This document shows, piece after piece, positions 6,190 to 38,498 of a stretch of 39,490 nucleotides of DNA. The position numbers and the translations under genes are program-made. The stretch spans positions 1 to 39,490 of IMG/VR virus record IMGVR_UViG_3300014656_000059, one strand, 5' to 3'. Positions within the stretch are counted from its first letter, which is position 1; the number at the start of each line of letters is the position of its first letter. Below the pieces are notes generated by a model, which was given only the letters and a program-made list of their open reading frames with translations, did no database searches and had not been told where the DNA came from. Origin of the DNA: a virus (Duplodnaviria > Caudoviricetes).

Positions 6190-6336
6190 ATGGATGATTT
6201 TTCTGATCAAGGTTCTGGTTGCGGTCGCAGTTCCGGAGGCGGTTCCGGTTTTGGTTCTGGTTACGGTTCCGGTGACGGTTCTAGTTACGGTTCTGGTTAC
6301 GGTTCCTGTGACGGAGACGGTTCTGGAAACGGTTAA
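6190..6336 (+). CDS. Gly-X repeat peptide, copy 1 (48 aa)
   Basis: Manual translation MDDFSDQGSGCG...GDGSGNG; paralog of the next ORF. Confidence 0.55.
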   Translation: MDDFSDQGSGCGRSSGGGSGFGSGYGSGDGSSYGSGYGSCDGDGSGNG

Positions 6337-6350
6337 TTACAAACAAAAGG

Positions 6351-6614
6351 ATGGGCGCCATGGATGATTTTTCTGATCAAGGTTCTGATTATGGTTCCGG
6401 TTTTGGTTCTGGTTACGGTTCCGGTTTTGGTTCTGGTTACGGTTCCGGTGACGGTTCCGGTGACGGTTCCGGTTACGGTTTTGGTTACGGTTCTAGTTAC
6501 GGTTCTAGTTACGGTTTCGGTTACGGAGACGGTTCCGGTTCCGGTTCCGGTTACGGAGACGGTTTCGGTGACGGTCCCGGTGACGGTTCCGGTTACGGTT
6601 CTGGAAACGGTTAA
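6351..6614 (+). CDS. Gly-X repeat peptide, copy 2
   Basis: MDDFSDQG...GSGNG; the start may be 6360. Confidence 0.6.
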   Translation: MGAMDDFSDQGSDYGSGFGSGYGSGFGSGYGSGDGSGDGSGYGFGYGSSYGSSYGFGYGDGSGSGSGYGDGFGDGPGDGSGYGSGNG

Positions 6615-6647
6615 TTACAAACAAACAAACAAACAAAAGGAAATAAA

Positions 6648-6941
6648 ATGATAGAAAAAGACAAATATTACATCGTACGAACATACTCAGCTGGAGTTTT
6701 TGCAGGATATATTGAGAAAAAAGAGGGCAAAGAGGTCGTGATGAAAAATGCGCGCCGGCTCTGGTATTGGGATGGTGCTTCGTCATTGTCTCAGCTCGCG
6801 ATGGAAGGCGTCAAAAAACCGGAAAACTGCAAATTCCCATGTGAAGTCGATAGTGTGATACTCACTGAAGCGGTTGAAATAATTCCGTGTACTGAAAAAG
6901 CACGGGAAAATATTGCCGCGGTTCCGGTATGGAAGCAATAA
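6648..6941 (+). CDS. DUF6948-like phage protein
   Basis: YIVRTYSAGVFAG...NARRLWYWDGASSLSQLA...EIIPCT; AAGGA SD; family name from recall. Confidence 0.75.
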   Translation: MIEKDKYYIVRTYSAGVFAGYIEKKEGKEVVMKNARRLWYWDGASSLSQLAMEGVKKPENCKFPCEVDSVILTEAVEIIPCTEKARENIAAVPVWKQ

Positions 6942-7435
6942 TTTCAGGCGACGGTTCCGGTTCCTGTTACGGCTACGGTTATGGTTGCGGCGACGGTTGC
7001 GGAGACGGTTGCGGAGACGGAGACGGTTGCGGAGACGGAGACGGTTCCGGTTCCGGTTTCGGTTTCGGCTTCGGAGATGGCTCCGGTTCCGGTTCCGATT
7101 ATGGTTCTGGTTACGGTTTCGGTTCTGGTTCCGGTTCCGGTTGCGGTTACGGTTCCGGTTTCGGTTTCGGAGATGGCTCCGGTTCCGGTTCCGATTATGG
7201 TTCTGGTTACGGAAAAAACGAGGCTCAAATGGAAGCAATAATTTTAGAAGGCTCAGATTACAACTTTGGTTTCGGTTACGGTTCTGGAGACGGTTCCGGC
7301 TCCGGTTCCGGTTCCTGTTACGGCTACGGTTATGGTTCCGGTGACGGTTACGGAGACGGTTCCGGTTTCGGTTACGGTTACGGTGAAGGTTGCGGTTGCG
7401 GTTCCGGTTTCGGAGACGGTTCCGGTTGTGGTTAA
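6929..7435 (+). CDS. Gly-X repeat protein of two fused MEAII modules
   Basis: ATGGAAGCAATAATTT at 6929 and 7229; start overlaps the stop of the upstream gene. Confidence 0.6.
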   Translation: MEAIISGDGSGSCYGYGYGCGDGCGDGCGDGDGCGDGDGSGSGFGFGFGDGSGSGSDYGSGYGFGSGSGSGCGYGSGFGFGDGSGSGSDYGSGYGKNEAQMEAIILEGSDYNFGFGYGSGDGSGSGSGSCYGYGYGSGDGYGDGSGFGYGYGEGCGCGSGFGDGSGCG

Positions 7436-12626: not shown

Positions 12627-12653
12627 CATTATAGAAAAAGAAGGAGTATCACA

Positions 12654-12941
12654 ATGATGCGACTAGATAGAATGATCCACAACCCTCAAGTAAACCAAGT
12701 TCAAGCTGAAGAAGCTAAGCAAATGTTCAATTACTTAGGGGAAAAGATTAAAAAAGTATTCACTTTCTTCAAGGTAAAGAAAGAACAGCGTAGAACAGCT
12801 AAGGCTATTAAGTTAGTAAAGTCCATTGGCGCTGTAAAGCATGGCGATACAGAGATGAAATCTGCTCAAGAGATTCATAATCTTAAGGCTTTCAAGAAAG
12901 GAGCGCTTCTGCTGTTACATAATGACACGGTGGTTTCATGA
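12654..12941 (+). CDS. Hypothetical protein
   Basis: AAGGAG SD; 95 aa. Confidence 0.65.
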   Translation: MMRLDRMIHNPQVNQVQAEEAKQMFNYLGEKIKKVFTFFKVKKEQRRTAKAIKLVKSIGAVKHGDTEMKSAQEIHNLKAFKKGALLLLHNDTVVS

Positions 12942-13548: not shown

Positions 13549-15069
13549 TTGTTAGAAAAAAATATACACAGCCCGTGGTGGCGACTTAATAATCTTTATC
13601 ATATTGTTGATAAAAACGGTAGCGATGTCCTCTTTAAACCGAACTGGGCGCAAGAGGATCTATACCGAAATTTCGATTATCTAAATGTTGTTCCTAAAGC
13701 TAGACAGCTTGGAATGTCAACATTCATAGACATATTCTTCTTAGACACTTGCATATTTAACAAGACCGTCTCGGCGGGCATTATTGCCCACTCACTGGAA
13801 GATGCTCAGCAAATATTTAGAACAAAAATAAAATATCCCTACGACAATCTAGATCCCGAAATCAAAGAGTGGTGTACTGCAAAGACAGACTCGGCAAGAG
13901 AGTTGTCATTCAACAATGGATCGTCAATCAGAGTCGGAACATCCATGCGTTCAGGAACTCTTAACTACCTTCATATATCCGAGTTTGGAAAAATATGTGC
14001 CAAATATCCAGAGAAAGCGAACGAGATTGTATCGGGGTCATTGAATACCGTACAGTCGGGGAACTTCATTTTCATTGAATCCACTGCCGAAGGAAGGGGT
14101 GGATTTTTTTATGACTACGTACGAGAGGCTCAGAAATTACAAGACTCAGGGGCAGAATACACTCCATTGGATTTCAAGTTGCATTTCTACCCATGGTGGA
14201 AACATCCTGATTACCAATTAGAGGATTCGAAGTTTGTCATAAACGATGAGCTAGAAGAATATTTTAGAAAGATAGAATTAGAGATAGGCATTGAATTAAA
14301 CAACGAACAAAAGGTTTGGTATGCTAAAAAGAAGATACAGCAAGGTGAATTTATTTTTAGGGAGTACCCTGCTACGATTGACGAGGCCTTCCTTGTTTCA
14401 AACGAAGGTTACTTCTATGGCTCGCAGTTTGCTGCTATTCACAGGAGTAATAGGATTTGTAATATTCCTCACGATCCTGCGACTTCCGTGGATACTTTTT
14501 GGGACCTGGGAATCTCTGATGAAACAGTTATATGGTTTGTCCAGAGATGTGGAAAGGAAATTCATGTAATAGATTACTATGAGAACACCGATGAATCACT
14601 AGCGCATTATGTTGGAGTGTTGATGAAAAAGAGAGACGAAGGTTATATCTATGGAAAACACTGGCTACCCCACGATGTTCAAGTAAGAGAGTTGGCAACG
14701 GGGACATCTAGATATGCTACACTTAAGAAGCTTGGTATTAGTCCATCGATTGTGGGACAGAAAACAGCCAACGGCAAGCACACTCCATTTCCTAAAGAGG
14801 ATCAGATTGAAGCGACAAGGAATGTGCTAACTAAATGCTGGTTTGATGAGAAAAAATGTAGCAAGGGTATTAGATCCCTAGAAAACTACAAGCGAGAGTG
14901 GAATGATAAACATGCTTGTTACTCTAACAGACCGCTTCATAACTGGGCATCTCATGCAGCCGACGCTTTTGCTGGCGTTGGGATATTCTTTAATAAAATA
15001 GGCAAATCTGAGAGTATGAGTCCCGAAGAAGCGGACAAACTATGGCAACGTTATTCATTAGGAGTTTAG
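13549..15069 (+). CDS. terL: Terminase large subunit
   Basis: KARQLGMST Walker A, LHISEFG Walker B, IESTAEG, WDLGISD and HNWASHAADAF nuclease motifs. Confidence 0.95.
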   Translation: MLEKNIHSPWWRLNNLYHIVDKNGSDVLFKPNWAQEDLYRNFDYLNVVPKARQLGMSTFIDIFFLDTCIFNKTVSAGIIAHSLEDAQQIFRTKIKYPYDNLDPEIKEWCTAKTDSARELSFNNGSSIRVGTSMRSGTLNYLHISEFGKICAKYPEKANEIVSGSLNTVQSGNFIFIESTAEGRGGFFYDYVREAQKLQDSGAEYTPLDFKLHFYPWWKHPDYQLEDSKFVINDELEEYFRKIELEIGIELNNEQKVWYAKKKIQQGEFIFREYPATIDEAFLVSNEGYFYGSQFAAIHRSNRICNIPHDPATSVDTFWDLGISDETVIWFVQRCGKEIHVIDYYENTDESLAHYVGVLMKKRDEGYIYGKHWLPHDVQVRELATGTSRYATLKKLGISPSIVGQKTANGKHTPFPKEDQIEATRNVLTKCWFDEKKCSKGIRSLENYKREWNDKHACYSNRPLHNWASHAADAFAGVGIFFNKIGKSESMSPEEADKLWQRYSLGV

Positions 15070-15291: not shown

Positions 15292-15357
15292 AAAGGAAAA
15301 GACAAAATCTAAATAGCAGGCAGCAGCCAAGGATGGCGATTTACTCAAGGAGGGGTT

Positions 15358-17487
15358 ATGCAAGCTACGCAACAGTATCCAATCTTAAAGGTTGATGAAT
15401 CTCGCGATGATATGAAAGAATCCGAGGTTTTAGAATATTACAATGAATCATATCAGCAAGCTTATTCTTCTTGGGGAGAATTTATAACAGAGGCTGACAG
15501 AGATATGGCTTTTTATCTTGGTGATCAGTGGGACGCCGCAGATAAGCATGCGTTATCAATGCAAAAGAGGTCGGCTTTAGTCTTCAATAAGATAAAAAGA
15601 ATAATCAAAATGGTTGAAGGTTATGAAAGAAAAACACGTGTTTCTTTGATGGCTTCTCCCACTGGTGATGAAGATCAGCCATTAACAGACCAACTTACAA
15701 AATGTCTAATCAGACAAATGAATATAGCTCGCTTGCATATGACTATGAGTGAGGCATTCTCCGGTTCTTTAAAGACGGGTATAAATTTAGTACAGTTATC
15801 ACTAGATCATTCAGAAGATTTGTTGTCGGGCGAAATAATGGGGTCTCGTCTAGCACATAACCAATTTTTGCTAGATCCTAGGATGGAGCGCAGGGATCTC
15901 AAGGATTGCGAATATATCATTCAACGAAAATACATGAGCAAAAACTCAGTTAAAGTATTGTTGCCATTCAGATCCGATGAGATAGATTTGATGAAGGGTG
16001 GAAACTATGATGACAAATTCCCGTACATGCCACCGGCGCGAGATTGGAAAAAAAGAGACCTATTACGCTTCGATGAATTTTGGGTAAGAAAAACCCGCCC
16101 GATCAAGGTGTTGCTAGATAAAGAATCCGGCATGATGAAAAAATGGGACGGTAATGAAGAAGTATTGAGACAGATAATGATAATGGACCCTCTAGAACGA
16201 CTCGCTTTAGGGTTGCCTGCCATGCCGACTATCATGAAAAGAGAAGAAAAATATGTTGAGCTCAATGTTATTGTTGAGAATGAACTAATGTATAGCGGTC
16301 CAGATCCCTGGGGATTGAATGATTTTCCTCATATTCCGGTGATGTGTTTCTGGGACCCAGAATATGCAGCTATCAGCTCGGAATCTGATTTTTCTCTGAA
16401 ATTGCAGGGTATGGTTAGATCAATGCGAGACCCCCAAACAGAAGTTAATAAGCGTCGTTCTAAGGCATTGGATATGATGGATTCATCACTTCAAGGTGGA
16501 TGGCAAGCTAGAGAAAATAGTGTTGTTAACCCAAAGGCATTGTATCAATCAGGTAACAGTGGTGTTGTCTGGATGAAAGAAGATGCCCAAATGACCGACG
16601 CTCAAAAATTACAGCCTAGTGACATTCCACCATCATTGATTCATCTCAGTGAATTATTTGATAGAGATTTGATGGAGATATCTGGTGCCACTTCAGAATT
16701 GATGGGTATGCCCGAAAATGAAAATATGCCAATATCGGGAATATTAGCCAAGGTAAGGCAGGGGGCAGGGCTCACAATATTACAGGATATCTTTGATAAT
16801 TTTAGATTCTCTCAAGAAATGTTAGGAGAGAAGTTATTGAAGATGATGCAGATAAACTATCATCCATCTAAAATACAGCGCATTTTGAATGAGAAACCAC
16901 ATCCGCAGTTTAAAGATGTAGATGCTATCAAGTACGACCTAAAGGTTGAAGAAACGGTTGAAACACCTTCTCAAAAGAATCTATTCTTTATGCAATTAAT
17001 GCAGGCCAAGCAAGTAGGTATACCAATACCTGATTCATTGCTACTTGAGAATATGCCTATCCAGAACAAAGAAAAGATCATAGAGGCATTGAAAGGGCAA
17101 GAGCAGCAAATGGCTAGACAACAACAGATAGAGGATCAACAAAGGCAGACATTAAATGAATTATCTCAAGCAAAGATTATGTCAGATGTTGGAATGGGAA
17201 TTGAACGAGTTGCAAGGGCAGAGGCAGATACAGCACTTGCTCGTGAACGCATTTCTGAATCACAGCAAAACCAAGCTCAGGCAATTCTCAACCGGGCTGA
17301 AGCGATTGTTAAAATTTCGCAAATGAAAGACGATCAGTTGCTTAAGTGGGCTGAGTTTATAAGACAAAGCGAATTAGATCATTTTACTAGACAAGAGAAG
17401 GCTATTGTTGGAGACCAGAAAAAGGTTGCTGGAGATGTAGCTATGGGAATGCAAATGCTAGCACAAAGATCAAAAGTCGTAAAATAA
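15358..17487 (+). CDS. P22-like portal protein
   Basis: FYLGDQW, LVFNKI, GMVRSMRDPQTEVNKRRS; Gln-rich helical C-terminal barrel; position after terL. Confidence 0.92.
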   Translation: MQATQQYPILKVDESRDDMKESEVLEYYNESYQQAYSSWGEFITEADRDMAFYLGDQWDAADKHALSMQKRSALVFNKIKRIIKMVEGYERKTRVSLMASPTGDEDQPLTDQLTKCLIRQMNIARLHMTMSEAFSGSLKTGINLVQLSLDHSEDLLSGEIMGSRLAHNQFLLDPRMERRDLKDCEYIIQRKYMSKNSVKVLLPFRSDEIDLMKGGNYDDKFPYMPPARDWKKRDLLRFDEFWVRKTRPIKVLLDKESGMMKKWDGNEEVLRQIMIMDPLERLALGLPAMPTIMKREEKYVELNVIVENELMYSGPDPWGLNDFPHIPVMCFWDPEYAAISSESDFSLKLQGMVRSMRDPQTEVNKRRSKALDMMDSSLQGGWQARENSVVNPKALYQSGNSGVVWMKEDAQMTDAQKLQPSDIPPSLIHLSELFDRDLMEISGATSELMGMPENENMPISGILAKVRQGAGLTILQDIFDNFRFSQEMLGEKLLKMMQINYHPSKIQRILNEKPHPQFKDVDAIKYDLKVEETVETPSQKNLFFMQLMQAKQVGIPIPDSLLLENMPIQNKEKIIEALKGQEQQMARQQQIEDQQRQTLNELSQAKIMSDVGMGIERVARAEADTALARERISESQQNQAQAILNRAEAIVKISQMKDDQLLKWAEFIRQSELDHFTRQEKAIVGDQKKVAGDVAMGMQMLAQRSKVVK

Positions 17488-17566
17488 AATGTTGTCTTAT
17501 ATTCGGCAAAGTAATATTAATTGATCTATTGAAAAGTAATTAGTTTAACTCAAACAAGGACGTTTG

Positions 17567-17929
17567 ATGGTTGTTGAACTTGGCGAGGTCAGGGAAGAGC
17601 TCGAAAAGAACGAAGCGGTGGTTTTAGATAAAATAATACAAAGATGTTCTGACAAAGAATCTTATTATGTATTAAAGCATTCTGCATGGGAAGGAGTATT
17701 GTCTAACACCATGCGGACGCGTTATACATTGAGAAGTAGGAAACCTAAAATTCCTATCGTTGGAACGAAGCTTTGGTTAATTAGCAACAAGGAATCAACC
17801 ATAACATTAGAATGGGACTTACCAATGGATATCATTGGCACAGAACCATTTGTCGATGAAGATAACGTCGTTGAAGCAAACTATAATTCCGCATGTCAAA
17901 ATGGTTTTGCAGTGTGGAACGCGCGTTAA
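17567..17929 (+). CDS. Hypothetical protein between portal and scaffold
   Basis: AAGGA SD; 120 aa. Confidence 0.7.
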   Translation: MVVELGEVREELEKNEAVVLDKIIQRCSDKESYYVLKHSAWEGVLSNTMRTRYTLRSRKPKIPIVGTKLWLISNKESTITLEWDLPMDIIGTEPFVDEDNVVEANYNSACQNGFAVWNAR

Positions 17930-18144
17930 TATGAGGTTATATCGTTGCGACAGAATATAATTTCATATTGTTATCTGACGTAGGTGGGATCGTCTCCACA
18001 TAGAGACTGGTAAGTCTAGGGATCGTCGCAGTTTTGGGGCTCACATGGATGTGAATAATGACAGGATGTCAGCCCCTTTTTTTAGAGCAAGGATGCTCTT
18101 TATAAGGAGTCGCCGTCCGAAGGGCGTAAAACAAGGATGTTTAC
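17930..18144 (+). ncRNA. Structured leader or sRNA with multiple GGA-loop hairpins (CsrA/RsmA-site-like)
   Basis: TCACA-TGGA-TGTGA, TGACA-GGA-TGTCA, AGAGCA-AGGA-TGCTCT, AAACA-AGGA-TGTTT; GGGGC/GCCCC stem plus T7. Confidence 0.75.
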
Positions 18145-18804
18145 ATGACACAAGATTTGGAAAATGAGGCTGTAACAGAGGAAATCGCCGAACCTCAACA
18201 AGAAGCTCACACCAACCAAGATGATAAGGAACATAATTTCCGCGCATTGAGGGAGCAAGTATCCAATTACCAACGGGATAATGACCAACTTCAATCTCGC
18301 TTACACGAGTTAGAACGTTCATATCAATCCGCTCAGGTTCAACCATCTCAGCAAACAAATGATGACGAAGACCTCCTCACGAAGGGGGAGCTTAAAAGGC
18401 TGTTGGCGCAGAAAGAGCAGGCATTTCAACAACAACTTACTGCAACTCAAATCAGGGCTCAATATAGAGACTATGATGATGTTGTAAATAGGGAAGTTTT
18501 TGAGGATATAAAGCGTGATAATCCGGGTATTGCGGAAGCTATAATGAGTAGTCAGAATCCTGACCTATTAGCATACACTATTGCTAAGAATTCACCCGCA
18601 TATCAAACAAGAGCAGCTAAGAAAAAGCAGCAGAAGTCTGATGCAGATCAAATATACCAGAATTCAATGAAGCCTGGCAGCATCACACAAGGGACGACTG
18701 GCGGTGGGGCTATATCTAAGACGTCGTATTTTGAGAATATGACTCCTCAAGAGTTTGAAGCGCATGTGGATAAGGTAAAAAGAAATGGTAATTGGGGTTA
18801 TTAA
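18145..18804 (+). CDS. Capsid scaffolding protein (probable)
   Basis: Acidic coiled-coil protein directly before the capsid gene; NFRALRE and MTPQEF motifs. Confidence 0.75.
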   Translation: MTQDLENEAVTEEIAEPQQEAHTNQDDKEHNFRALREQVSNYQRDNDQLQSRLHELERSYQSAQVQPSQQTNDDEDLLTKGELKRLLAQKEQAFQQQLTATQIRAQYRDYDDVVNREVFEDIKRDNPGIAEAIMSSQNPDLLAYTIAKNSPAYQTRAAKKKQQKSDADQIYQNSMKPGSITQGTTGGGAISKTSYFENMTPQEFEAHVDKVKRNGNWGY

Positions 18805-18829: not shown

Positions 18830-19774
18830 ATGGCAACCACAACCACTACCCAAGTGAGTGCAGCCGTATCAACTTACTACGATAGACTCCTTTTACAGCG
18901 TGCTAAGCCTTATCTTATTCATTCGCTTTTTGCGCAAAAAAGGAATCTACCAAAGAAGTCAGGTTCGACAATTAAATTTAGACGCTATTCAGCGTTATCA
19001 ACAGCAACAACACCACTATCAGAAGGTATTACCCCCTCCGGCAGCCAGTTATCTGTTACAGATATTACTGCTACCGTTGTTCAATATGGGGATTTTATTG
19101 AGGTTAGCGATGTTGTTGACTTAACAACAGAAGATGCTGTTATTACAGAAGCAGTAGAAGTATTGGGTCAGCAAATGGGTGAAACTCTGGATGAAATCGT
19201 TCGTGATATTCTTTCAGCTAACGCTTCTGCTACTAACGCTTCTGGCGGTGATAATGGTCAGACACCAACAGAAATCACAAAATCTGATATCGATGGTGTT
19301 ATTAAGACTATGATGGGTGCAAATGCTTTGATGTTATCAAGCATTATAAACCCAACAACTGGCGTTGGTACTGTACCTATCGCTCCTGCATATTTTGCTT
19401 TAGCCGATACCGATATGACTAAAGATCTTTCAGCTGTTGCAAACTTTGTATCAGTCGAATCTTACGGTCAGCAAGGTCCTGTTATGGAAGCTGAATGGGG
19501 AACAACAGGTCGCGTACGTTGGCTTGTATCATCCGTTGGAAAAGCTACATCAGAAAGCCCAGTTCAATACCATAACTTTATCATGGGTCGTAATGCCCTT
19601 GGTGTTACTGAGCTTGCTGGCGGCGGAGCAAAAACCATTGTTAAAGCGTATGGTTCTGGCGGAACTTCTGATCCATTGGATCAAAGAGCTACAGTGGGTT
19701 GGAAGACATTCTTTGTTTCAAGAATATTGAATGACAATTTCGTCCATAACTTAGAAACAACACTAGACACTTAG
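18830..19774 (+). CDS. Major capsid protein, N4-gp56 family
   Basis: TIKFRRY..L, QYGDF, DPLDQRATVGWK motifs. Confidence 0.92.
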   Translation: MATTTTTQVSAAVSTYYDRLLLQRAKPYLIHSLFAQKRNLPKKSGSTIKFRRYSALSTATTPLSEGITPSGSQLSVTDITATVVQYGDFIEVSDVVDLTTEDAVITEAVEVLGQQMGETLDEIVRDILSANASATNASGGDNGQTPTEITKSDIDGVIKTMMGANALMLSSIINPTTGVGTVPIAPAYFALADTDMTKDLSAVANFVSVESYGQQGPVMEAEWGTTGRVRWLVSSVGKATSESPVQYHNFIMGRNALGVTELAGGGAKTIVKAYGSGGTSDPLDQRATVGWKTFFVSRILNDNFVHNLETTLDT

Positions 19775-21570: not shown

Positions 21571-22593
21571 ATGGCTTGGAACGCAACACTTCCAGCTGGA
21601 TCAACATCAATATCCGGTTCAGATGATTTAATACGAGATAACTGGGCAGCAATAGAAACTGGCACAGTTCCGTACGATGCTTTAAAATTACAGACTCAGG
21701 GGTCAGATCCAACAGCGGTGGCGGATTATGGATTTCTTTTCTCAAAGGATGTATCTTCTAAGGCTGAGTTGCATTACATCGATGAAGATAGCAACGTCAT
21801 ACAGATAACAAGTGCTGGATCACTGGGAAGCGCTACAGAAAATTTTGCAGCTGCAAAAATCGATGTGGACAATCTTAGACTTGATGGAAACACTATCATA
21901 TCTACTGACACAAATGGCGACATTAATATTACCCCTGATGGAACTGGTTCGGTTGTAATATCTAAGGCCGATATTAATAGCGGTGCCATCGATGGAACAG
22001 CTATCGGTGCAGCTTCTGCTTCAACTGGAGTTTTCACAACTATAACAGCGGCAAGCTTGGCTTATCCTACTTCGGATGGTAGTGCTAATCAATTTATTTC
22101 TACCGATGGGGCGGGGACATTGTCTTTCGCAACAGCGGGGACTTTAGTACAACAAGTAGTTGTTACCGACAATAGTCATTTTTCAACAGCTTCTTCTATA
22201 CCGGCCGATGATACCATTCCGCAAAACACTGAAGGTGCTGAATTATTTACGCTAGCTATTACACCAACTAACGCTAGCAACTACTTATTGATTCAGGTCG
22301 ACATGAATATCTGGTCAACACTAGGTAATAGTTTGGCTACAGCGGCATTATTCCAGGATTCTACAGCTGGCGCATTAGCTGCTTCCGGTGTATGGAACCA
22401 GAACCAAGCAGGATTTTATCCCGAAGCTCTTACTTTAGTACATAGAATGACAGCAGGAACCACCAGCGCTACAACATTTAAAATTAGGGTTGGTTCATCC
22501 CTGGGTACAACTTATGTAAATGGTAGTTCGACTGGTCGTTTTCTTGGAGGCGTTATGAAGGCTACCATGATAATTTCTGAAATAAAGGCATAA
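21571..22593 (+). CDS. Tail fibre-like structural protein
   Basis: Thr/Ser/Gly-rich; NGDINITPDGTGSV and STDGAGTLSF fibre-shaft motifs. Confidence 0.65.
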   Translation: MAWNATLPAGSTSISGSDDLIRDNWAAIETGTVPYDALKLQTQGSDPTAVADYGFLFSKDVSSKAELHYIDEDSNVIQITSAGSLGSATENFAAAKIDVDNLRLDGNTIISTDTNGDINITPDGTGSVVISKADINSGAIDGTAIGAASASTGVFTTITAASLAYPTSDGSANQFISTDGAGTLSFATAGTLVQQVVVTDNSHFSTASSIPADDTIPQNTEGAELFTLAITPTNASNYLLIQVDMNIWSTLGNSLATAALFQDSTAGALAASGVWNQNQAGFYPEALTLVHRMTAGTTSATTFKIRVGSSLGTTYVNGSSTGRFLGGVMKATMIISEIKA

Positions 22594-31691: not shown

Positions 31692-31736
31692 ATAGACACA
31701 ATCAAAAATGGTTGTGAATAATCATGGAGGATTATT

Positions 31737-33737
31737 ATGGCATTCGTACATCCAAAAGACCGAGGACGTCCATTAGCGACAACAGACAGAGCTGGTATTG
31801 CTCAATTTAGTAGCTCAAATTTTTCAGTTTCCGAAGGTGTAGTTTCACTTTCCGGCAGCGCATTAACTACTTTTGCGGCATTAACTGATACAAATATCAC
31901 AACACCAACATCCGGTCAAATCCCGATTTATGACGGAACCAACTCTTGGGATAACAAATCTGTTTCAGGAGATATTACACTTTCAAATGCCGGTGTTGCA
32001 GCTATTGCATCCGGTGTAATTATCAATACTGATGTTAAATCAGATGCTGCAATTGCATTTAGCAAACTAGCTGCTTTAACAACAGGTAGTGTTCTTGTTG
32101 GTGCAGCCAACGTAGCAGCAGCACTTGATGGTAAAGGTGACGGCAAGGTACTTGTTGGTAATGGAACAACAATGACATCAGTCGCAATTTCTGGTGATGT
32201 AACACTAGCTAACACAGGTGCCACAACTGTTACAGATTTAACTATTACATCCGAAGCGCAAGGTGATGTTTTATATTTTAATGGAACAAATTGGGTAAGA
32301 TTGGCAGCGGGAACAGCGGGTCAAAGCCTTGTTACTGCCGGTGCAGCATCTAATCCATATTGGGGAACACCATCATCTGGATCATCCGACACATTACTTT
32401 CTCCATTTACTGTTGAAGGCGGAACTTATGATCCCGCTACAACTGTAACAACACAAACAACATCAGCGGCTGCATTAACAATTCCAGATTTAGGTGGTGT
32501 TGCTCAAGAGTGGTGTTTTACTAAACAAGCACAAACATTAGAAAACAAAACTTTAACAGCTCCAATTATTGCAACTGGTGGAAAAATTGTTGACGCTGGC
32601 GGAGATGAATATATTGTATTTACAGAAGATACAACTCCCGTAACTTATATTGGAATTACAAGCGGTGATACAGGCGTTGCCCCTATCGTTTCCGGTGCAG
32701 GTGAAACTAATACTCATTTAATGCTTAAAGGAACAGGAACGGGTAATGTTCAGATAGCTGATGGTGGTGATATAACAGCTATTGTACAATTTGAACTTGA
32801 TGGAGCAACAACCGGTAAGACAATGACATTGACTCATTCTCATACTGATGACAGAACTATCACCTTCCCAGATGCTACCGATACTCTTGTTGGTAAAGCA
32901 ACTACCGACACTCTTACAAATAAAACACTGACTACTCCCATCATTGCAACAACTGGTTATATTGCTGACGCTGGTGGAGATGAATATTTACAATTCATAG
33001 AATCTACCACGCCTGTTAACCACATTGTTGTTACTCAAGGCGACACCGGTGTTTCTCCAATGATAACATCTGGCGGGGAAGCGAACATTCCATTAATGTT
33101 ACACGGTAATGGAACAGGTAACGTTCAGATTACTGATGGCGGTGATATCACAGCTAAAATGGAGTTTGAACTTGATGGAGCAACGACTGGTAAGACAATG
33201 ACTATTGTCTCCTCTCAAGATGGAGATTATTCATTAACACTACCAAACGCTACCGATACTCTTGTTGGTAAAGCAACTACTGATACTCTTACAAACAAAA
33301 CAATCGACTGTGCTGGAACAGGCAACGTCATTACAAACGTTGATATAGAAGAGCTTCAAGCTGAAACAATTCCAGCGGCTGACGGTAATAGTGTTACCAT
33401 CGTAGATGGTCTTATTATGGCTAAAGTAACTAACAACGCTACCAACTTTACTATTTACAACGCTAATGCTCCTTATGCCTTTATGGTTATCGATGCTTGG
33501 AGCGTGAATATTTCTGGTGATGGCGGAACCTGGAAGCTTAATGATGGCAACGCTGGTGGTGGAACTGATATTACTGATGTTGTTACTGTTGCTGCTTCTG
33601 ATACTGATATAGATCGCATTACAACTCTTGATGATGCCGCGGCACAAATTGCTGCAAGCGGATCTTTGTCTGTTGTCTTCGATGGCGGTGGAGCACTAGA
33701 TGCATATATTTTCATTAGAATAGCACGTCTAGCTTAG
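31737..33737 (+). CDS. Tail fibre-like protein with 125-aa internal duplication
   Basis: Thr/Gly-rich; TDTLVGKATTDTLTNKT repeats. Confidence 0.7.
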   Translation: MAFVHPKDRGRPLATTDRAGIAQFSSSNFSVSEGVVSLSGSALTTFAALTDTNITTPTSGQIPIYDGTNSWDNKSVSGDITLSNAGVAAIASGVIINTDVKSDAAIAFSKLAALTTGSVLVGAANVAAALDGKGDGKVLVGNGTTMTSVAISGDVTLANTGATTVTDLTITSEAQGDVLYFNGTNWVRLAAGTAGQSLVTAGAASNPYWGTPSSGSSDTLLSPFTVEGGTYDPATTVTTQTTSAAALTIPDLGGVAQEWCFTKQAQTLENKTLTAPIIATGGKIVDAGGDEYIVFTEDTTPVTYIGITSGDTGVAPIVSGAGETNTHLMLKGTGTGNVQIADGGDITAIVQFELDGATTGKTMTLTHSHTDDRTITFPDATDTLVGKATTDTLTNKTLTTPIIATTGYIADAGGDEYLQFIESTTPVNHIVVTQGDTGVSPMITSGGEANIPLMLHGNGTGNVQITDGGDITAKMEFELDGATTGKTMTIVSSQDGDYSLTLPNATDTLVGKATTDTLTNKTIDCAGTGNVITNVDIEELQAETIPAADGNSVTIVDGLIMAKVTNNATNFTIYNANAPYAFMVIDAWSVNISGDGGTWKLNDGNAGGGTDITDVVTVAASDTDIDRITTLDDAAAQIAASGSLSVVFDGGGALDAYIFIRIARLA

Positions 33738-37952: not shown

Positions 37953-38498
37953 ATGACAACAGGTATAAAAAATGAAATTTTCACTGCTGATGCTGTCAGG
38001 ACTGCTAATATTGGTAATGCTGCTAGCCACATCCAAATGTCCGCTGCTGGCGAAGTCACTATGACTTCTCAGCCGGCATTTTTAGCTAGACCGAATGGTA
38101 ACAAAAACAATGTCACAGGAAACGGCACTAATTATACGATTGTTTTTGACGATGAGGTTTTCGATCAGAATGCTGACTTTGATGGAACGAGTACATTTAC
38201 TGCCCCAATAACAGGAAAATATAGATTTTCGGCTGGTGTTGCATTACAAGAAATGGGATCTGCGAATAACATGAAACTCACGTTAGTAACTTCTAATCAT
38301 ACTTATATGTTTTTCTTCGGAAATCCACCCACGCAGGCAGGGGGTTATTTAGCATTGTGCGGAAGTATTTTAGTAGACATGAATGCTGCTCACACTGCTC
38401 ATGTTGTAGTTACGGTTGAAGGTGTTGGTGCTGATACTGCGGATGTATTAGACAATTCTGATGGCGGAACATATTTCTGCGGCGAATTAGTTTGTTAA
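37953..38498 (+). CDS. C1q-like domain protein
   Basis: PAFLA...IVFD.EVFD...FTAPITGKYRF...TYFCG.LV. Confidence 0.75.
   Translation: MTTGIKNEIFTADAVRTANIGNAASHIQMSAAGEVTMTSQPAFLARPNGNKNNVTGNGTNYTIVFDDEVFDQNADFDGTSTFTAPITGKYRFSAGVALQEMGSANNMKLTLVTSNHTYMFFFGNPPTQAGGYLALCGSILVDMNAAHTAHVVVTVEGVGADTADVLDNSDGGTYFCGELVC

Follow-up and report, generated by a model that had tools for sequence, protein, structure and literature searches.

Predicted CsrA-type hairpins at late-gene starts of a tailed phage, with a family-wide stem ahead of its likely scaffold gene

The late mRNA of the tailed phage analysed here carries a real, non-random set of predicted CsrA-type operators. The window, meaning the whole stretch of DNA that was analysed, is a complete virus record of 39,490 bp (rated complete), and its sequence suggests that the hairpins probably serve as cis operators, predicted to bind CsrA/RsmA of whichever host the phage infects and thereby to block ribosome entry at the genes for the portal, a 121-aa protein, the scaffold and a 666-aa protein. 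This reading is supported because the sites are non-random, because they lie at late-gene starts, because their loops are kept under stem changes and because no csrA was detected in the phage.

By its sequence, the phage combines a P22-type portal with an N4-gp56-type capsid. In the late region, terL starts at 13549, and four further genes matter here, all on the plus strand: the P22-like portal gene (709 aa, 15358-17487; PF16510, E=2e-73), the 121-aa gene (17564-17929), which lies between portal and likely scaffold, a likely scaffolding protein gene (219 aa, 18145-18804) and the major capsid gene (N4-gp56-type by profile matches, 314 aa, 18830-19774). A 666-aa likely virion protein is encoded further downstream, also on the plus strand (31737-33737; phrog_692, E=1e-7). 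The scaffold label comes from position and weak family support: the product has no match of its own and no GP20 Pfam match, and two of its 16 homologues match the phrog_8865 scaffold (E=0.004 and 0.009). No integrase, csrA or tRNA gene was found in the phage genome, and no endolysin was recognised by Pfam or PHROGs. Elsewhere, a DUF6948 gene lies amid tandem Gly/Ser/Tyr-repeat ORFs (6190-7435), which the relative L426 also has, and two likely tail proteins (21571-22593 and 37953-38498) give weak Pgp3 C-terminal and C1q matches. A quick capsid tree, with 61 of 157 rows kept, placed the window beside two relatives in the topology (window,(L425,L426)); L426, with a capsid identity of 78%, is as near as L425. 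L426, a sister phage lacking the hairpins, encodes three tRNA genes (2259-2758).

The scaffold leader (17930-18144) holds the densest group of sites. The sequence-only reading had counted seven GGA motifs in it, four of them in hairpins, and both counts were borne out: the GGAs lie at 17987, 18020, 18047, 18064, 18091, 18106 and 18135, and the four hairpins have 5-6 Watson-Crick pairs each. Seven is a chance-level number (P=0.17, shuffles), and the GGA count was dropped as evidence. All four hairpins are of CsrA type and on the plus strand. Hairpin 1 (18041-18054, UCACA-UGGA-UGUGA) and hairpin 2 (18059-18071, UGACA-GGA-UGUCA), whose GGAs are 17 nt apart, lie within a terminator-like stem; hairpin 3 (18084-18099, AGAGCA-AGGA-UGCUCU) is a candidate upstream tether site; and hairpin 4 (18129-18142, AAAC-AAGGAU-GUUU, also divisible as AAACA-AGGA-TGTTT) contains, as had been noted from the sequence, the scaffold Shine-Dalgarno (SD) sequence, its GGA being the last of the seven and lying 10 nt ahead of the ATG at 18145. 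The noted resemblance to the CsrA consensus RUACARGGAUGU is likewise real, with 9, 9, 9 and 11 of 12 positions matched by hairpins 1, 2, 3 and 4. Against a second consensus, (A/U)CANGGANG(U/A), hairpins 1 and 4 fit in full, hairpin 2 is without the N, and hairpin 3 has G/C flanks. The GGAs of hairpin 3 (18091) and hairpin 4 (18135) are 44 nt apart, within the published bridging range of 10-63 nt (PMC7652899, which also gives the consensus). The leader has two features of CsrA target leaders: GGA in short, consensus-like hairpin loops, and an SD site with an upstream site 10-63 nt away. When the whole leader is folded in silico without protein, the predicted probabilities are about 0.05-0.07 for hairpins 1 and 2, 0.90-0.97 for hairpin 3 and 0.52-0.75 for hairpin 4.

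The same leader contains other elements. A long AU-rich hairpin (17927-17970, plus strand) sits at the stop of the 121-aa gene, is not found in L425 or L426 and holds the GCGAC at 17947; the long-range pairing of this GCGAC with GTCGC at 18025 or 18109, proposed earlier, was rejected, the letters being present but the predicted pairing probability at most 0.005. The repeated GGGATCGTC was located at 17986 and 18019, as claimed. A TGAC-N11-13-GTC inverted repeat or UCGUC-loop hairpin occurs in the window (17976-17995), L425 (3279) and L426 (9236), hence in all three scaffold leaders of the near clade, its order relative to other elements differing; no common -10 region was seen that would make the repeat at 17976 a shared promoter. 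Four groundwater runs from four studies, one of them possibly the source of the record, gave DNA identical to the scaffold leader in every part that they covered.

Across the genome, the pattern CA(N)GGA(N)G has 15 plus-strand sites, seven of them with a stem of at least 3 pairs, against one of 10 on the minus strand. All seven hairpins sit in the leaders of four late genes: one at 15328 in the portal leader, one at the SD of the 121-aa gene (17555), the four scaffold sites, and one at the SD of the 666-aa gene (31723). At the portal (15326-15353, plus strand), the hairpin GCCA-AGGA-UGGC, weakly predicted in the window, is accompanied by the SD site CAAGGAGG. The hairpin UCAAAC-AAGGAC-GUUUGA (17550-17567, plus strand) covers the SD and the start of the 121-aa gene, and AAUAAUC-AUGGAG-GAUUAUU (31717-31736, plus strand) covers the SD of the 666-aa gene. 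The capsid gene's own leader has no CsrA-type hairpin. In 20,000 dinucleotide shuffles of the scaffold leader, which has four such hairpins, one hairpin arose in 160, two in 1 and three in 0; 200 whole-genome shuffles gave a mean of 1.16 and a maximum of 5, against the seven observed. These shuffle statistics are inflated by the hairpin pattern having been fixed after the sites were seen, though it agrees with the published consensus. The zones within 110 nt of the gene starts on a hand-made list make up 13% of the genome and contain all seven hairpins, and hairpins belong to four of 22 late but none of 23 early plus-strand genes (p=0.049).

In L425, several loops persist while their stems differ. 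Its scaffold SD keeps ACAAGGAUGU with an altered stem, UCAC/GUGA (UCAC-AAGGAU-GUGA) instead of AAAC/GUUU; AGAGCAAGGAUGC is retained at the hairpin-3 position with the inner stem alone left; and two hairpins stand before the portal gene in the same places as in the window, with other stems. Hairpins 1 and 2, the U7 tract and the site of the 121-aa gene are missing from L425. No CsrA-type hairpin was found in 11.8 kb of L426, so that, of the two close relatives compared, loop conservation under stem changes (at the scaffold SD and portal) was seen in L425 and not in L426. Homologues of the 121-aa gene were found by tblastn in 40 of 383 loci, L426 among them though without hairpins. The capsid genes of L012, L014, L169/L426, L059 and G466 fall into two tblastn pieces with breaks at similar places, which suggests introns.

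Further afield, such hairpins are rare. Among 275 non-redundant family loci with 2,579 called starts, there were 18 start-proximal hairpins, of which the window and L425 account for seven; 13 of the loci had at least one and 262 had none. In the other 273 loci, roughly 2,000 SD regions containing GGA yielded five SD hairpins. This survey serves as a control for the confounding effect of GGA within SD sequences. A pattern scan returned 107 loci, seven ahead of a long ORF, among which the only true homologue was L564, identical with L425.

The closest known counterpart is the cel leader of colicin E7 (cei-cel T1; PMC2896534). As in that system, a mobile element with a polycistronic operon would be subject to host CsrA, with no element-encoded regulator in the account given there, and an intercistronic terminator with a CsrA site precedes a further site that covers the SD of the next gene, the sites in our case being predicted. 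There are differences: cel is a lysis gene, whereas here virion genes of a tailed phage bear sites predicted from their letters, and one leader has four of them, two inside a terminator-like stem, with more at three other genes. At T1, CsrA is described as acting on translation with mRNA level not affected (PMC2896534). The chromosomal leaders of glgC, cstA and pgaA, as presented in PMC7652899, resemble this phage late mRNA in having an upstream hairpin and an SD-overlapping site at 10-63 nt spacing and 4-6 sites per leader. For pgaA, CsrA is also described there as affecting termination, a further likeness, but pgaA termination is Rho-dependent and the stem here is like an intrinsic terminator.

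On the preferred operator reading, a CsrA dimer would bridge hairpin 3 and SD hairpin 4 across the intervening GCCG/GGGC stem, repressing scaffold translation, and host CsrA would repress the portal, 121-aa and 666-aa genes in parallel. Assembly of heads would be delayed until the level of free CsrA drops, whether lowered by host antagonists or titrated by the growing late mRNA with its many sites. Hairpins 1 and 2, in a likely partial terminator, would be a lineage-specific addition comparable to the ColE7 T1 site, offering extra tethers and perhaps altering read-through. The older GCCG/GGGC stem would form another operator, one shared across the family, and by analogy with P22 its most likely reader would be the scaffold protein.

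A regulator supplied by the host is consistent with our searches for a phage csrA. A six-frame search with PF02599 found none; an HMM built from seven bacterial CsrAs, run on the window and 10 further loci (3,291 ORFs from six frames), gave a best E of 0.72 (4.1 in the window); and Pfam and PHROGs searches of 43 small or unassigned ORFs at E<=0.1 also found none. Phages do carry csrA in some cases, with 30 of 2,517 reported in PMC7366521. The nearest named prophages are in Desulfatibacillum (capsid 55%, portal 42%) and in Chlamydiota (capsid 32-45%), and the branching that unites the window clade with the chlamydial-like one lacks resolution in the quick capsid tree. csrA is present in both Desulfatibacillum genomes and in 24 of 150 Chlamydiota genomes. 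This phage's capsid family was found in six of 400 Chlamydiota genomes and a P22-type portal over the cut-off in 16 of 401. YqaJ matches were found in three of 201 Chlamydiota genomes and one of 201 genomes from the phylum of G001, and a SpoVG-like gene in none of either.

One csrA-bearing chlamydial genome, G499, has a prophage integrated among host genes. Hairpins stand at six of the 22 starts of this prophage (one doubtful), including those of portal, scaffold and capsid, and three copies of the GCCG/GGGC type lie just upstream of its scaffold SD hairpin. In 13 chlamydial genomes without a csrA match, hairpins were found at one of 238 starts, csrA absence from incomplete metagenome-assembled genomes being a weak observation. 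This comparison left out G609 and G441 (portal fragments) and G049 (under the cut-off), and it is pseudo-replicated in that all six hairpin starts come from one genome; a link between hairpins and csrA-bearing hosts is therefore suggestive and rests on G499. Of five csrA genomes tested, among them G006, G499 and G172 (L615, L736 and L768), FliW and flagellin matches were found in G006 only. The csrA-bearing chlamydial genome G042 has a 29-nt tandem repeat with CAUGGAGG (L783; C48, 5300-5365, minus strand), possibly a Csr-type sRNA.

Several observations count against the operator reading. L426, as close as L425, has no hairpins; the capsid leader has no site; and the phages of csrA-bearing hosts G042, G172 and Desulfatibacillum are without start hairpins, with 0 of 5 and 0 of 15 starts in the short phage contigs of G042 and G172, and none at real starts in two prophages of Desulfatibacillum hosts, where csrA lies within a flagellar gene cluster. 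Moreover, we know of no benefit to a phage, in whose genome no integrase was found, from having a host protein repress its own late genes. The earlier proposal of a CsrA-repressed capsid leader survives in part: the consensus match, the further late-gene sites, the L425 loops with changed stems and the prophage layout in a csrA host speak for a repressed leader, whereas the capsid's own leader lacks a hairpin.

Paired consensus sites also occur in other viral contigs. A scan for them gave 98 stretches, 68 of them distinct, and most were intragenic or chance-like; several stand upstream of capsid, head, connector, tail or methylase genes, and in one case the gene downstream is flagellin-like. 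Flagellin genes are a known class of CsrA target. Nine of the records were fetched at greater length and eight were scanned, of which G157, G159 and G160 had further, unascertained hairpins at several starts and the other five had hairpins solely at the site that had found them. No csrA was found in the 10 records tested, two of which are complete. G160 is a distant family member with hairpins at six of seven sites, including the leader of its 121-aa orthologue, two of the sites being those by which it was found. Within G160 (L716, 4895-11373), CsrA-type hairpins lie ahead of five genes, and the capsid gene is split by an insertion with a 175-aa ORF on the opposite strand, which resembles a homing endonuclease. 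G157 (L714, L715) and G159 (L718, L719) are unrelated phages with hairpins at the starts of several long genes, the capsid gene among them in G159, and neither record holds csrA. Phage DNA methyltransferase genes in L623, L684 and L723 (G163, 12637-12657) likewise have paired consensus sites at their SD.

It is unlikely that no protein is involved and that the hairpins act purely through their structure on initiation or on the stability of the mRNA, the terminator just ending part of the terminase-portal transcript. The stems are indeed short and, AAGGA and GGAG being Shine-Dalgarno sequences, three of the seven sites need their GGA regardless. However, the other four (the upstream portal site and hairpins 1-3) are away from SD spacing, the closing CA..G is retained in L425 while outer stems change, and the low SD-hairpin background in the other family loci does not favour an effect of SD sequence.

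A different role had been proposed for the first two hairpins, namely that they sit as GGA loops in a branched terminator whose product is a phage-encoded CsrA sponge. The sequence parts are there: a GGGGC (18036)/GCCCC (18072) basal stem and a T7 (U7) tract at 18077 form an intrinsic-terminator-like element (18036-18083, plus strand) at which transcription may terminate. The branched fold did not hold up as the resting form. Without protein, the lowest-energy fold is a single long, irregular hairpin (-18.2 kcal/mol, 60% of the ensemble), and the branched fold with two GGA loops (-15.9 kcal/mol, 1.4%) lies 2.3 kcal/mol above it. Since two tandem ACA..UGU hairpins give a cross-paired fold automatically, that fold offers no evidence of a designed switch. 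A terminator scanner did not list the element, because it permits loops of 3-8 nt only.

That the RNA ending at 18083 is a dedicated phage CsrA sponge or a CsrA-gated terminator, titrating the host regulator in a threshold switch, strikes us as quite unlikely. In its favour are the basal stem with U7, two consensus sites 17 nt apart and the small energy gap, which puts the branched fold within reach of protein binding; speculatively, RNA processing could take place at the AU-rich hairpin (17927-17970), and Salmonella fimAICDHF offers a precedent for an mRNA leader that works as a CsrA sponge (as cited in PMC13501541). CsrB/CsrC and RsmX/Y/Z (PMC7366521) show the same layout of several short GGA-loop hairpins followed by a U-tract, as do the fimAICDHF 5' UTR and FimR2 (as cited in PMC13501541). 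Unlike the sponge RNAs as these sources portray them, the element here has two sites before the U-tract, predicted to be exposed in about 5-7% of the protein-free ensemble, and two of the four hairpins lie past the terminator in a translated leader. A scan for sigma70-like promoters found none in 17930-18144. Rfam gave no Csr/Rsm match at gathering thresholds in the whole window or at E<=10 in 17400-18300, and nothing but tRNAs at gathering in the window and 20 homologous loci, so that the suggested Infernal check for CsrB/Rsm families and GP20 motifs returned no match. Nor is the element kept in relatives, hairpins 1-2 and U7 being absent from L425 and L426 and the only comparable terminator among 12 relatives with at least 60% capsid identity, in L171, having loops without GGA. 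A dedicated sponge is thus unlikely, given two sites, no promoter found and no conservation, and given the 2.3 kcal/mol gap the modelled element may be a CsrA-gated terminator with incidental titration. A more elaborate scheme, which we regard as fairly unlikely, would have phages without their own csrA tie virion assembly to host Csr: CsrA would repress portal and scaffold translation and, on hairpins 1-2, refold 18036-18083 from the long hairpin to the branched form, gating read-through, and terminated late transcripts would pile up as a two-site sponge, release the block all at once and perturb the host regulon.

Quite improbable, too, is recognition of the GGA hairpins by a protein of the phage that has no kinship with CsrA, either the scaffold or another late protein, and that sets head-protein stoichiometry. 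The restriction of the sites to virion genes would suit such a reader, and the P22 scaffold is reported to autoregulate its translation (bioRxiv 2022.12.13.520362). However, the scaffold is family-wide and the hairpins are rare, the 121-aa gene is present in the hairpin-free L426, and the same consensus turns up in unrelated phages, ahead of genes that are unrelated too, and ahead of a flagellin gene. Chance or an assembly artefact is very improbable indeed, the GGA count being unremarkable by itself but no shuffle giving three hairpins, the DNA recurring identically in four runs and the hairpins being conserved in L425.

Scaffold autoregulation as in P22, which the sequence-only reading had offered as an alternative, finds a better fit in an element that reading had missed than in the GGA hairpins. 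A family-conserved stem, CGCC/GGCG around GUCCGAAG and followed by UAAAA (18111-18126, plus strand), has a predicted probability of about 0.73 in the window. Its pattern, NGCCR..GGGCN just ahead of the SD, occurs in 82 of 129 scaffold leaders (capsid identity at least 44%), compared with 25 of 375 upstream control windows and 6% of shuffles; in more distant loci, a stricter pattern found it in 11 of 70. Among 47 distinct short instances, the outermost bases can pair in 45 (36 C-G, 5 A-U, 4 U-G), where 35.7 would be expected; these figures are uncorrected for kinship. This is an anchored count, and a count of double changes from a MAFFT alignment was set aside as that alignment misplaces the AAGCCG/GGGCTT subclade. 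Many family scaffold leaders have two or three copies of the stem, and those of L202, L052, L191, L094 and L228 have long versions of it, inside which lies another hairpin whose loop, AGAACCAC, recurs.

The stem thus provides a conserved structured RNA beside the scaffold SD, as a P22-type operator would. Because it tracks the scaffold gene and the GGA hairpins do not, we infer, by analogy, that it is the better candidate for P22-like autoregulation. It fits with P22 and with the GP20-a and GP20-b motifs (RF02991, RF03003; PMC10690425) in being structured RNA directly before a scaffold-type gene. Unlike these, as far as they are described there, it is a candidate operator in a different phage family and has no Rfam match in the window or homologous loci (20 searched, tRNAs aside). 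The consensus string of the stem is not in the searchable tables of PMC10690425, among whose candidates the stem may still be.

In the open-access literature on CsrA/RsmA and phages, we found no report of host-CsrA control of phage virion genes. The GCCG/GGGC stem, an element without an Rfam match across a large uncultured phage family, is a testable candidate for a scaffold-feedback operator, and the short scaffold leader makes the operator idea cheap to test. As CsrA-type sites recur independently in several phage lineages, they could mark a csrA-bearing host. If the operator reading is true, a tailed phage would be using a global post-transcriptional regulator of its host as a sensor, timing head assembly to the physiological state of the host.
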